Sequence record: PZ445527.1
Strand: one strand, 5' to 3'
From: a phage
Length of the DNA: 64,000 nucleotides
Made by a program: the position numbers and the translations under genes. Below, in pieces: positions 2,774 to 6,653 of this stretch. The notes beneath the pieces are model-generated. The model was not told the DNA's origin, ran no database searches, and was given only the letters and a program-made list of their open reading frames with translations. Within the stretch, counting starts at the first letter, position 1; every line of letters starts with the position of its first letter.

Positions 2774-3446
2774 ATCTGCGATCCCTTATAATGTAATAAG
2801 TTTGCCGCCGATAGACTTTAAGATATACCCAATTTTTAAAGAGCGCGGCGGTAAACTTCCCGCCGTGTAGTTCGTCATTGCCGCCCTACGAGATAAATAA
2901 TAACAAATGCCAAAAATGGCGCAACCTTATTTTTGTAAAGAAACGTAAAGAAAGCAAATACTCGCACCGCGTCCGGCGATTGCCCAAGTTTAAAGGAAAC
3001 GGGCGCGCGGATACCATAAAATCCAGCAGATAGGCAAGTAATTTTTTCATTTATATTTGCCTTGCCCTACTTGATTTTTCTAGAATCCATCAGGTGACGA
3101 TAAACGGGCTATCCCTTTATGATGGGATACCTGAAAAATTTACCTCGTTGTAGGACGTTTTAGGCCGCTTATTTTCGAGTTAACAAATATTTAACAAAAG
3201 CAAAATTGAAAAATAGTTGTAAAAGGTATTGACTTTTAAAAATCAAGATTAAACGAGTTATTTTATAAAATTAATTAATTGACTTTTATTTGTTGTTGTG
3301 TACTAGAAAGATAGCAGACTAATAATTACTAGAATGATAATCATGCTGGTGGATTGTAACAGCCTGAACCATTAGCAGACTACTAATTCCGGAAAATCTC
3401 ATTAGCCAACTAACTATTTCCTGAGTTATAATATAAACATAAATTA

Positions 3447-3610
3447 ATGAGAAATAATAACTATAAAAATAATCACCATTATAATAATAACTATAAAAAT
3501 AATAACTATAAAAATAATCGCCATTATAATAATAATTATAAAAATAATCGCCATTATAATAATAACTATAAAAATAATCACCATTATAATAATAACTATA
3601 AGAAACTATC
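3447..3610. repeat. about 4.5 tandem copies of a 30-bp AT-rich unit (aataactataaaaataatcRccattataat)
   Basis: Direct reading of 3456-3590; copies differ at 1-2 positions, one half-copy inserted. Confidence 0.85.
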
Positions 3611-3639
3611 GGTCTAAGTGAGAATCACTATCATTTAAG

Positions 3640-3721
3640 TTATTCACAAAGTTATCCACAGCACAAAATGATTTGACACGATAGGCGGCGATATAAGGGC
3701 TTATCCACAGACTTATCCACA
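3640..3721 (+). promoter_or_regulatory. cluster of four DnaA-box matches (ttattcaca 3640-3648; ttatccaca 3652-3660, 3701-3709, 3713-3721)
   Basis: Matches to DnaA box consensus TTATNCACA, three perfect TTATCCACA. Confidence 0.6.
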
Positions 3722-3731
3722 GGTTTTCCTA

Positions 3732-3747
3732 CTGTATAAATATACAG
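3732..3747. promoter_or_regulatory. LexA (SOS) box-like palindrome CTGTATAAATATACAG
   Basis: CTGT-N8-ACAG with AT-rich spacer, flanked by ta...gg; immediately downstream of DnaA boxes. Confidence 0.55.
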
Positions 3748-3963
3748 GGTAAAAAGGTAGTGTTAACGACTGCAATCAATTTTAAGCGGCCTAAATCGCT
3801 TTCTAACGAGCTAAATGATGCGGGGTAATATTAAAGTAAAGCCTCCACCCGTTGCCCTGGGTGAAGGGTATTGATATTTCTACTTTTACCGTTAACAACG
3901 AAAACGAGTAATAATTAACCTAATGTAAAGTTTTGTAAAGGTCGCCATAATCGGTGGCTTTTT

Positions 3964-3972
3964 TGTTATAAT
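3964..3972 (+). promoter_or_regulatory. candidate extended -10 promoter (TGtTATAAT) for the small-gene cassette
   Basis: TATAAT at 3967-3972 with TG at -15/-14; weak -35. Confidence 0.3.
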
Positions 3973-4031
3973 GCCCCTACACCGTTTGAGGACGGTTGAA
4001 AATTTTCCCAAAAAAATTTTGGAGGCTTAAA

Positions 4032-4262
4032 ATGGTTGCGTATTCTTCTTCTGACGCTCTTTTCACTGGAAAAGGCTGGGTATCAAATCGCTGGATCATT
4101 CAAGAAATGGTGCGGGAGTTCGGCATTGCTAAAACTTACACTACCATTCAGGCGCTTTATGATAATGATCAAATCGATCAGCAAACGGCGGGCTTTTTGC
4201 TGGATACCCTGAAGGCGGAACATTGTACTAAAAAACAAGCCGCCAAAATTGCTTTAATGTAA
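4032..4262 (+). CDS. hypothetical protein (about 76 aa)
   Basis: ORF track frame 3996..4262; start moved to ATG 4032 preceded by GGAGG at 4021-4025. Confidence 0.5.
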   Translation: MVAYSSSDALFTGKGWVSNRWIIQEMVREFGIAKTYTTIQALYDNDQIDQQTAGFLLDTLKAEHCTKKQAAKIALM

Positions 4263-4270
4263 CTAATAAC

Positions 4271-4289
4271 GGGGCGTTATTTTCGCCCC
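4271..4289 (+). terminator. GC-rich stem-loop (ggggcg-ttatttt-cgcccc), possible terminator
   Basis: Perfect 6-bp GC stem right after stop at 4262; no clear U-tract. Confidence 0.35.
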
Positions 4290-4310
4290 ACTAACTAGGG
4301 GGGAATGAAA

Positions 4311-4457
4311 ATGGTTATTTTTCGATCAATTCTGGCGGGTATCTTGGGCGCTGTTTTATCACTTTTTGCCATAGCTTTCGGCGTTCACGCGGTTATTGTT
4401 GGCGCGGGTATCGCCGTTTTTTCTTATTTGCTGGGCTGCATGAGTAAAGGGGAATAA
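4311..4457 (+). CDS. small membrane peptide (48 aa)
   Basis: ATG at 4311 after gggggga; hydrophobic sequence MVIFRSILAGILGAVLSLFAIAFGVHAVIVGAGIAVFSYLLGC; below ORF track size cut-off. Confidence 0.45.
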   Translation: MVIFRSILAGILGAVLSLFAIAFGVHAVIVGAGIAVFSYLLGCMSKGE

Positions 4458-4459
4458 AA

Positions 4460-4672
4460 ATGATCCGCAACGTTTCTCTTGCTCGTTCGAAAGGCTTTAA
4501 GCTGGTGGACGTTAACACGTTCGAGCGGGAAGATTGTAAAATTGAATATATAGCACGGAATAAAAACGCCTTCCGTGTTACTGAAAAGAAATTCGATAAG
4601 CGCGGCAACGTGATCGCTGAAACGGTTAGACACTTTGCCACCTTTTACGCGGCCTTTCGTGGGGTACTATGA
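4460..4672 (+). CDS. hypothetical protein 70 aa
   Basis: ORF track; aagggga upstream; start overlaps previous stop. Confidence 0.5.
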   Translation: MIRNVSLARSKGFKLVDVNTFEREDCKIEYIARNKNAFRVTEKKFDKRGNVIAETVRHFATFYAAFRGVL

Positions 4673-4794
4673 AAAGCGTTGTTATTGTTATCCTTGCAAT
4701 GGTTGGCGGTTTTACCGCCACCTTATTTAAGAATGATCCCCTTTCATTGGGGATTTTTATGCTTTTATCTGGTTACCTGATTGGGAGGTTATAA
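4669..4794 (+). CDS. small membrane peptide (41 aa)
   Basis: ATG at 4669 overlapping previous stop (ctATGa); hydrophobic MKSVVIVILAMVGGFTATLF... Confidence 0.4.
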   Translation: MKSVVIVILAMVGGFTATLFKNDPLSLGIFMLLSGYLIGRL

Positions 4795-4795
4795 A

Positions 4796-5140
4796 ATGGT
4801 AATTTATGAAGGCAATCGCTTTGTTACTAATTGCCGCCCGGCATTGTTAGCAAACTACTTAAACCAGCTTTCTCCTGAATATAAGGGCGTTGTTAATATT
4901 TACGAGGGAAAAGCGCATTATAAGATTAATGCGGTCGTTGCCCGTGAACTAGCGTTTCAATTTTTGACCTTTGCATCTTGTGATATTCAGGTCATGGGGG
5001 AGGCGTTAATCGCAGAAAATGAAAATGATTTTATTAATATTTTTCGCAAAGTATGCACCGAGCGCCTGATAATGAAAGGCGCATATATTCAATCCACTGC
5101 GGATAGTATTGAAACAGCGTTTCGAAAGGTGGCACAATGA
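4796..5140 (+). CDS. hypothetical protein (114 aa)
   Basis: ORF track frame 4781..5140; ATG 4796 preceded by GGGAGG. Confidence 0.5.
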   Translation: MVIYEGNRFVTNCRPALLANYLNQLSPEYKGVVNIYEGKAHYKINAVVARELAFQFLTFASCDIQVMGEALIAENENDFINIFRKVCTERLIMKGAYIQSTADSIETAFRKVAQ

Positions 5141-5155
5141 AATTATATATTTTCG

Positions 5156-5434
5156 TTGGTAATAGTAAGGCAGCTAATGATTCCGCTGGGGGCGATAACG
5201 TTCGCCACTATTGGCAAAAATATATTTACTAGGGTTATTATGAGCAATAAAATTATTATAACTAAAACTACCACAATGGTAGACGTTTTTTACGTGCCCG
5301 ATACGCCGGAAAACCGGCAAGCGGTCGAGCGGGGTGATTATGGTAGCGTTATTTATGATGCCGATGGCTATTATCGGCATTTGGTCGATTCCTATGGGGA
5401 AGAGGAGAAGATCACGCATCGACTACCAGACTAA
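5156..5434 (+). CDS. hypothetical protein, start uncertain (possibly internal ATG near 5240)
   Basis: ORF track; acidic C-terminal half; followed by a GC hairpin at 5441-5470. Confidence 0.35.
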   Translation: MVIVRQLMIPLGAITFATIGKNIFTRVIMSNKIIITKTTTMVDVFYVPDTPENRQAVERGDYGSVIYDADGYYRHLVDSYGEEEKITHRLPD

Positions 5435-5469
5435 TAATAACGGGGCGCAACTATCAGGGAGTGCCCCCA

Positions 5470-5516
5470 ATTCTCAAATGAGAATCATTCTCAAATGAGA
5501 ATGATTCTCATTTGAC
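5470..5516. repeat. imperfect palindromic repeats built on tctcaaatgagaatCattctca
   Basis: Direct reading; same aatgagaat motif family recurs at 5840-6030. Confidence 0.7.
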
Positions 5517-5707
5517 CGCGCCCGCGATGGTTAGCCTGCTAATGATTAGGGTGTTACGTGTCGCCTTGTGTGATCGTTAGCTCGCTAACTAATTTTCAAG
5601 CCTCCTCCAATTTTGCCCTTGTTTTAGTATCCCCGCCAAAATTAAACGCGTTAGAATGCGATTCAGGACGTTTTAGCGGTATATTAGAATTATTCACTGC
5701 ATAGGAA

Positions 5708-5727
5708 TACTGTATAAATATACAGTA
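5708..5727. promoter_or_regulatory. LexA (SOS) box, 20-bp consensus-like tACTGTATAAATATACAGta
   Basis: CTGT-N8-ACAG with TA flanks; second copy of the 16-mer at 3732-3747. Confidence 0.6.
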
Positions 5728-5747
5728 GAATAACCTGGGGATAAGTC

Positions 5748-5817
5748 TGTGGATAACGCTTCAAAATGGCTAGGATTCTGTCAAGTCAAATCGTGCTGTT
5801 GATAAGTCTGTGGATAA
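5748..5817 (-). promoter_or_regulatory. two DnaA boxes in inverted orientation (tgtggataa at 5748-5756 and 5809-5817), each within gataagtctgtggataac
   Basis: Reverse complement of TTATCCACA; the 18-bp context is the inverse of cttatccacagacttatcc at 3700-3718. Confidence 0.6.
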
Positions 5818-5839
5818 CTTAAATAACAGTGTTTCTCAC

Positions 5840-6030
5840 TTCCGTTTTTAAATGCGAATCATTATCATTCGTATTCCACTATCTAACCGATAATCATTCC
5901 ACTTTTTAAATGAGAATCGTTTCACTTCTTGAATAGTTCTCATTCCCTTTCTTAAATGCGAATAATTATCATTCGCATTTCACTTTTTAAATGAGATTGA
6001 TTCTCATTATCATTCGCATTCAGGCGAGCA
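5840..6030. repeat. cluster of degenerate repeats (ttttaaatgMgaat / tcattatcattcg units)
   Basis: Direct reading: at least 4 copies of ttttaaatg[c/a]gaat and 3 of (t)cattatcattcg. Confidence 0.65.
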
Positions 6031-6050
6031 GGGCAATTGCCCTGCGCTTT

Positions 6051-6653
6051 TGTGCAAATCCGACATCTGCTCCAAGGGTTACGTGCTGGCGTGTATGTGC
6101 AAATCCGACAATTTTTGGTAGTGTGCAAATCCGACCCGAAAAATTTTTATAGTGTGCAAATCCGACGACGAATCTGTCTCCCAAAAACTCCAGCAATCAC
6201 GAACTGCGTTCGAATCCTGTGGGATATGTGCAAATCCGACATGGTTTTTCTAGGATTAAGATGTGCGAATCCGACAAGATTTTTGTGACTTCGATTGAAG
6301 GGTGTGTGATTGTGTGGGTTTGAGGAGAAGATGAGAGAGCGAGAGAAATTTTGGGACTAGAAGGATGTGGGCGCAGGATTGGTGCGGAGCACCTGATTTG
6401 CGGGGATTTTGGGGAAGATGTGGGATAATTTGGGAAGATTTGAGATAGGTGCAGAAAAAGTGAAATTTTATTAGCAAAATGGGGCAAAATAGCTTGACAA
6501 GTGAAAATTTCTGTGGCTCTAAAAACTCAGGCAATCATGGGCCTTCGGCCCGAAATAATGCTGCTATTTTCAGGAGAGTAGGAGTTCCTAAAAACTTAGG
6601 CGTTTGTGCAAATCCTACCATAAATTTCTAGAATATCAATGTGCAAATCCGAC
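6051..6653 (+). repeat. iteron-like array: 8 dispersed direct copies of TGTGCAAATCCGAC (6051, 6106, 6122, 6153, 6227, 6263 variant, 6605 variant, 6640)
   Basis: Six exact 14-mers plus two 1-mismatch variants, all same orientation, in non-coding DNA. Confidence 0.85.

Follow-up and report, generated by a model that had tools for sequence, protein, structure and literature searches.

The analysed DNA, a stretch of 64,000 nt from the phage sequence record PZ445527.1 (hereafter the window), carries two mirror-arranged arms, in each of which a palindrome resembling the operator of the host protein LexA is located beside paired boxes of the DnaA type, with a block of small genes between the arms. 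The region matched 448 phage records at 80–95% identity, mostly T5-like phages of Salmonella and Escherichia. The open reading frame (ORF) 1587–1994 on the minus strand encodes the A2 protein, 93–97% identical to A2 in most of the T5-like viral contigs recovered, with a minimum of 65% in the most distant one. The layout was colinear with annotated T5, with A2 followed by repeats, by small pre-early genes in a rightward block and then by the "injection stop signal" (iss). Because of the A2 match and the T5-colinear gene order, the DNA was assigned to a T5-like phage, with the start of the window inside the left terminal repeat and thus in the DNA of the first injection step of the two-step T5 mode. 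To the right of A2, the second arm was found immediately within the boundary that separates first-step from second-step transfer, in the location typical of T5. An earlier note on this DNA (the original prediction) had spoken of an injection-stop-like region, a description borne out by the colinearity with T5, the iss feature included.

The two arms form an inverted repeat of 132 nt (3616–3747 versus 5710–5841, 77% identity of complementary sequences) with 1962 nt between them, which local alignment extended to 3616–3835 versus 5841–5623 (223 columns, 71%). Judged by sequence, they are the IRC-spacer-IRD and IRD'-spacer-IRC' arms of T5, with a variable gene block between them. Eight DnaA-type boxes were identified, which form four pairs, the members of each separated by 3 bp; five matched the consensus TTATCCACA exactly and three had one mismatch (Table 1). 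Pair members start 12 nt apart and the two pairs of an arm 61 nt apart, in both arms alike. All five exact copies of TTATCCACA present in the 64 kb were located within the modules (3652, 3701 and 3713 on the plus strand, 5748 and 5809 on the minus strand), compared with 0.75 expected, and none of 100 shuffles reached this count. A TTATCC-like stub was noticed between the inner left DnaA-box pair and the left LexA box, abutting the latter. Tandem DnaA boxes had originally been described beside each LexA box and are indeed there, but as two pairs (four boxes) per arm and not one, and the DnaA strings quoted at 5739–5756 and 5800–5817 were displaced by one base. The mutual inversion of the box pairs and the mirror arrangement of the modules were confirmed, with the boxes lying on the plus strand in the left arm and on the minus strand in the right one; the mirrored copies, however, turned out to be parts of a larger inverted repeat (132 nt, about 220 nt when extended).

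The 16-mer CTGTATAAATATACAG occurred exactly at 3732–3747 and 5710–5725, where two copies of CTGT-N8-ACAG had been claimed. The loose pattern CTGT-N8-ACAG was weakly enriched in the window (3 versus 0.72 expected, a count reached by 3 of 100 shuffles). The sites were scored as 20-mers with a heterology-type operator index, the matrix for which was built from 26 E. coli operators and gave approximate values. On this scale, the right site (0.78) outperformed all 26 E. coli operators (range 2.2–12.3) and the left site (3.56) ranked among the strong ones, so that the matrix scoring proposed in the original prediction placed both sites within or above the range of the E. coli operators. No third site in the 64 kb scored below 11, and the best site obtained over 30 shuffles had an index of 7.44. 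Sequence and statistics support both motif classes as genuine, and the predicted LexA identity of the arm palindrome is well supported by sequence and comparison.

The identical 16-mer is carried by T5 at 6213 and 9411 and by nearly all of 40 loci anchored on A2. Conservation inside the T5-like group was rejected as evidence for a LexA box because the whole arm is about 90–100% conserved there, and only the cross-genus comparison was considered informative. In the Proteus and Vibrio phages compared, A1 was 31–42% identical to that of T5 (73% in the Klebsiella phage) and A2 was 35–40% identical to that of the window. Anchoring on A1 revealed a strong LexA-type box beside DnaA boxes in a Klebsiella Sugarlandvirus, a Proteus Novosibvirus and three lineages of Vibrio phages. 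A sample of 50 distinct IMG/VR contigs was also gathered by A1 homology and not by motif, and the composite of LexA-type and DnaA-type sites was found upstream of A1 in 40 of them. Among the remaining ten, five had a short upstream sequence, one was a fragment, three carried distant A1 homologues on contigs of other kinds and one represented a true loss. The right, injection-stop-side arm had a counterpart in nearly all relatives having enough sequence. The alignment with T5 and its relatives suggested in the original prediction thus revealed a module kept in nearly all phages sampled, with one clear loss. Phages of hosts with a different LexA motif (Rhizobium phage RHEph10 and Shewanella phage 1/4) were considered as a further test, which proved inapplicable because their A1-like genes sit among replication or tail genes, with no T5-like first-step region.

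Across T5-like, Klebsiella, Proteus and Vibrio phages, the DnaA boxes were located in a fixed register, their starts, counted from the LexA 20-mer, being at -17 (±1), -29 and -79 to -90. In a cross-lineage alignment of 10 sequences, 12 of the 16 core positions were invariant, compared with a mean column identity of 52%. The box variants observed (CTGG, CCAG and changes in the interior) are ones tolerated by natural LexA operators, and the distal CAG half-site was kept at every site of the A1-anchored set with an index below 7.5. The injection-stop-side copy was always the stronger of the two. The asymmetric centre was polymorphic, with AAAT and ATTT in a ratio of 16:9 among the commonest right-arm variants. 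Such free flipping of the centre, together with the divergence of A2, favours a symmetric host dimer with conserved specificity; a phage protein that co-evolves with the site, or a directional signal, would fit less well.

The exact composite had 47 matches in IMG/VR, all of them on contigs of 95–128 kb. In 100,044 bacterial and archaeal genomes a single match was obtained, on a contig of 3 kb that carries two inverted copies. This contig (L161; RZZU01000077.1, 3015 bp, labelled as a Clostridia bacterium metagenome-assembled genome) is probably a phage fragment binned into that assembly, as its inverted copies, about 2.3 kb apart, resemble those of T5-like phages. The composite therefore appears, in the collections searched, to be restricted to the T5-like phage family and absent from bacterial chromosomes.

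The left side was less uniform. Vibrio phages JSF10 and GRLPWR had no strong left box, only degenerate relics in the left non-coding regions, which were conserved between the two phages: an ATGT variant with no DnaA box in JSF10 and DnaA boxes with an ATGT variant in GRLPWR. In the phages sampled, a complete left arm, with a strong LexA box and adjacent DnaA boxes, appears to be confined to the T5-like and Klebsiella phages. The comparison shows the stop-side arm to be the ancestral core, and the left arm appears to be its inverted duplicate. A second degenerate LexA-like box, CTGTATATTTATACAT, was noticed one base past the outer DnaA box in JSF10 and GRLPWR (L044 7682–7707 and L046 581–608), the DnaA-plus-LexA unit being thus tandemly repeated in these phages.

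The architecture itself was already known. A comparison of 25 T5-like phages (Davison 2020, bioRxiv 10.1101/866236) described 131-bp arms and eight DnaA boxes in pairs 3 bp apart, a highly variable inter-arm distance and gene content, and some relatives with the right arm only. It also put forward the proposal that membrane-bound DnaA holds the boxes and so stops injection, and dated the first DnaA box reported in the region to 1987 (Heusterspreute). As all this is in Davison 2020, neither the mirrored layout nor the DnaA boxes nor a proposed role in pausing is new, and the original prediction had failed to recognise the arms and DnaA boxes as published. In the text of Davison 2020, neither LexA nor SOS is named and the 16-mer is treated as a palindrome only. 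Papers on the stop signal from 2023–2026 deal with repeats, palindromes and DnaA boxes and leave LexA unmentioned; a cis-acting stop of transfer by these repeats is a hypothesis even for T5. Nothing relevant emerged from full-text literature searches for T5 or its taxa in combination with LexA or SOS. In the literature searched, the proposed LexA reading of the arm palindrome is unreported.

Sequence, statistics and conservation show the arm to be a composite, predicted landing pad, in which a near-consensus LexA operator lies in fixed register with two phased DnaA-box pairs. As a whole, the locus may be best explained by injection-stop arms that serve as a landing pad for LexA and DnaA and give rise to a boundary complex at the transfer border, an explanation favoured tentatively and given nearly even weight. 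In such a scheme, once the first 8% of the genome has entered, resident LexA and DnaA would occupy the last-entering arm, i.e., the right arm just inside the border between the first and second steps, which is the only arm present in nearly all relatives. The nucleoprotein boundary complex formed there would help to hold or insulate the DNA during the pause. The LexA part would make the complex removable, as degradation of host DNA by A1 would activate RecA and lead to self-cleavage of LexA. Complexes on DnaA boxes block RNA polymerase and DnaA associates with the membrane, both of which fit the proposal. A pausing role, which the original prediction had offered as an alternative, would also match the standing hypothesis for the T5 region (Davison 2020). 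The narrower claim that LexA itself is a working part of T5-like two-step injection, helping beside the DnaA array at the border to hold the pause, is regarded as decidedly improbable.

Several points weigh against the boundary-complex explanation. The LexA occupancy it assumes is a prediction from sequence, made with the approximate index described above, and a complex formed in the cytoplasm would not evidently arrest incoming DNA. In L107 (IMG/VR contig 2974785468, a 128 kb Vibrio-type phage), the LexA box was replaced by unrelated sequence at about 4947–5040, although this lineage has three DnaA boxes of exact sequence and still carries the inward block conserved in the family; the LexA box is thus not indispensable. 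T5 with a deletion from hegG to 017 remains viable, forming small plaques. If contiguous, this deletion (its endpoints are not given in the text) would remove the left arm together with the small genes, so the left arm seems to be dispensable in T5. Genome-wide E. coli screens with T5 were reported to yield only fhuA and Fur-related hits, with lexA unmentioned, which is weak evidence because such screens select for resistance. An earlier mention of LexA may also exist in Heusterspreute 1987, Wang 2005 or Davison 2015.

The main competing explanation, judged unlikely, regards the composite as a promoter repressed by DnaA and LexA together, which upon LexA cleavage would be switched on and produce a short non-coding pre-early transcript directed inward. 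Its -35 sequence would come from the nearest DnaA box (TTATCC or TTCACA) and, 16 bp further, its -10 sequence would lie in the LexA box (TATATT or TATAAT). The corresponding -17/+5 arrangement does recur in T5-like, Klebsiella and Proteus arms, the candidate of Proteus phage 2 is excellent (TTCACA-16-TATAAT, score 13.5, above the 99.99th percentile of background) and about 100 nt inward of the box are conserved family-wide. In the window, the -10 of a good minus-strand promoter directed outward (3766–3739) also falls within the left box; this promoter faces away from the small genes, and its -35 is absent in T5. At the right box, only weak candidates for a promoter overlapping the LexA operator were found. 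However, most inward-promoter scores were between 5 and 8, about the best expected by chance over a few hundred positions, and in the right arm the centre reads either TATATT or TATAAA, the latter devoid of the critical last T of a -10. RNAalifold applied to ten sequences from six lineages detected no consensus structure on either strand inward of the box, the Rfam search with the inward block gave a match at chance level only, and no conserved ORF was found there. Only three pre-early promoters of T5 have been mapped experimentally, none of them at this site. The spacer that separates the DnaA pairs contains a conserved TTGACA, which was not taken for a promoter because no -10 could be seen by eye at a usable spacing. 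It is quite unlikely that the palindrome is bound by a phage protein, either dimeric A2 or a palindrome-cutting A1/A2 nuclease as proposed by Davison, and that its likeness to a LexA operator is incidental or mimicry. A2 is an essential DNA-binding dimer required for second-step transfer, and the palindromes of the region have been named as possible cleavage sites (Davison 2020). The left relics of the Vibrio phages, with ATGT in place of CTGT, are moreover conserved between two genera although expected to be poor LexA binders. On the other hand, of 65,536 possible palindromes of 16 bp, by our own calculation no more than about 16 combine CTGT...ACAG with an A/T-only interior, which makes a coincidental likeness unlikely. 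The site remained constant while A2 diverged to 35–40% identity, as expected for a site bound by a host protein whose specificity gammaproteobacteria have in common, and the variants observed were those tolerated by LexA.

The original prediction had itself offered another explanation, in which LexA and DnaA sites bracketing the small-gene cassette make its expression SOS- and DnaA-responsive; this is now considered very unlikely. The cassette lies exactly between the arms, as had been claimed, and tight control would be plausible since several of its homologues are toxic or DNA-acting (013 and the 015 nuclease). It contains seven ORFs with PHROG matches (Table 1) and not five or six genes. 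Its probable promoter, TGTTATAAT at 3964–3972, lies where T5 has its gene-011 promoter (6411–6489 in the T5 annotation) and is separated from the left LexA box by about 220 bp, and the right LexA box is located downstream of the operon, past the last gene. The promoter upstream of gene 011 is among those mapped experimentally in T5, where primer extension revealed ordinary pre-early kinetics. Inter-arm distance and gene content vary widely among phages (Davison 2020), Vibrio relatives have degenerate relics instead of a strong left box, and the hegG–017 deletion is viable. The sole good promoter overlapping a LexA box in the window, as mentioned above, points away from the cassette. The cassette would hence be an ordinary rightward pre-early operon with its own promoter, unlikely to be controlled by the LexA and DnaA sites. 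The possibility that each arm with its flanking AT-rich repeats constitutes an oriC-like DnaA-dependent origin or unwinding element is highly improbable. By sequence alone, clusters of consensus DnaA boxes adjoining AT-rich repeats (eleven 15-bp units at 3408–3632 and the repeats at 5836–6020) do resemble such an origin. To our knowledge, LexA boxes are not established as functional parts of DnaA-dependent origins. The resemblance to oriC was also noted by Davison (2020), but the T5 origins were mapped near mid-genome and the replication genes are still missing at the time of first-step transfer (Davison 2020).

Table 1. Arms, binding-site candidates, promoter candidates and small genes in the window.
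Feature	Position	Strand	Remarks
Left arm	3616–3835		3616–3747, T5 IRC-spacer-IRD; 3748–3835, inward extension, less conserved; aligned with T5 and a Klebsiella phage
Outer DnaA-box pair, left arm	3640–3660	+	TTATTCACA (3640–3648) and TTATCCACA (3652–3660), 3 bp gap
Inner DnaA-box pair, left arm	3701–3721	+	TTATCCACA at 3701–3709 and 3713–3721
Left LexA-type operator	3730–3749 (core 3732–3747)		TACTGTATAAATATACAGGG; index 3.56
Sigma-70-like promoter	3739–3766 (3766–3739)	-	TTAACA-16-TATATT; 10/12 matches; score 11.9, top 0.01% of background
Terminator-like hairpin and extended -10	3937–3972	+	hairpin 3937–3962, then TGTTATAAT at 3964–3972
Pre-early cassette, seven small genes	4032–5434	+	each ORF matches a PHROG family, 1e-25 to 1e-64
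Cassette gene 1	4032–4262	+	76 aa
Cassette gene 2	4311–4457	+	48 aa, hydrophobic
Cassette gene 3	4460–4672	+	70 aa, Ung-dependent nicking endonuclease family
Cassette gene 4	4669–4794	+	41 aa, hydrophobic
Cassette gene 5	4796–5140	+	114 aa
Cassette gene 6	5137–5232	+	31 aa
Cassette gene 7	5240–5434	+	64 aa
Right arm	5623–5841		5710–5841, T5 IRD'-spacer-IRC'; 5623–5709, inward extension
Right LexA-type operator	5708–5727 (core 5710–5725)		TACTGTATAAATATACAGTA; 19/20 consensus positions; index 0.78
Inner DnaA-box pair, right arm	5736–5756	-	TTATCCCCA (5736–5744) and TTATCCACA (5748–5756)
Outer DnaA-box pair, right arm	5797–5817	-	TTATCAACA (5797–5805) and TTATCCACA (5809–5817)

Further features were noticed within and around the arms. 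The homology of the arms runs about 90 nt inward of the LexA box (3748–3835 and 5623–5709), with a partial third copy at 3138–3171, and the inward blocks CTAAAACG, CGCATTCTAACG and ATAYTAAA were recognisable in Klebsiella, Proteus and Vibrio phages too. An ORF of 48 aa with a GTG start (5558–5704, plus strand) inside the right-arm extension had no PHROG family match and is therefore probably not a gene. At the outer end of both arms (3616–3630 and 5828–5841), a near-palindrome AGTGAGAA(A/T)CACT was detected, which also adjoins the outer DnaA box in Proteus phages (L043 and L111) and may be a site for another protein. The 15-bp AT-rich units at 3408–3632 are arranged head to tail, immediately next to the left arm on its outer side; the ORFs 3444–3584 (minus strand) and 3447–3617 (plus strand) lie wholly inside this array and are probably artefacts. 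A perfect 20-nt inverted repeat, TCAAATGAGAATCATTCTCA / TGAGAATGATTCTCATTTGA, is present at 5474–5515. To the right of the right arm, the AT-rich region 5836–6020 is occupied by a repeat family AAATG(A/C)GAAT...ATTC related to this inverted repeat, and the two are probably some of the named palindromes and direct repeats of the T5 stop region. Five irregularly spaced copies of (A/G/T)TGTGCAAATCCGAC at 6050–6284 probably correspond to the DRD repeat series of T5 near the end of the terminal repeat.

The question of how T5 halts after 8% of its DNA has entered and then restarts has stood since the 1960s. The most conserved palindrome of the region is a near-perfect predicted operator for a second host protein, LexA, and a LexA box fixed beside DnaA boxes offers a testable lead on the pausing of DNA entry in T5-like phages. 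LexA would add a concrete and easily manipulated factor, since purified LexA is a standard reagent and so are lexA(Ind-), lexA(Def) and recA hosts. The stop-side arm as the ancestral core indicates which copy to mutate, and L107 is a natural loss-of-box variant useful for comparison.

LexA operators are known from mobile elements, as in PrstA of CTXphi, tum of coliphage 186 and colicin promoters. Like the sites described here, these are near-consensus CTGT-N8-ACAG sequences on mobile elements infecting gammaproteobacteria. They overlap a defined promoter and control genes of lysogeny, toxin production or transfer, whereas the host phage of the present sites is virulent and the conserved copy lies at the DNA-entry boundary, without a conserved strong promoter and register-locked with DnaA boxes. 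The regulatory region of E. coli uvrB likewise combines a LexA box with a DnaA box, but its two sites serve different promoters and are not in a fixed register, and no bacterial chromosome in the collection searched carried the phage composite. Arrays of the oriC type and polymerase-blocking DnaA complexes share with the arms the clustered high-affinity TTATCCACA beside AT-rich repeats; in the arms, however, the boxes are paired 12 bp apart with a LexA site appended, and the origins of T5 are placed near mid-genome (Davison 2020). The closest counterpart is the injection-stop region of T5 (Heusterspreute 1987 and Wang 2005, as cited; Davison 2020), which agrees with the present locus in genome position, in arms of 131–132 nt, in DnaA pairs with 3 bp inside the pair and 61 nt between pair starts, in a palindrome at the inner end of each arm and in a variable gene block between the arms. 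No structural difference from it was found, and the locus is another member of the same element, in which the homology of the arms is here shown to extend about 90 nt further inward.

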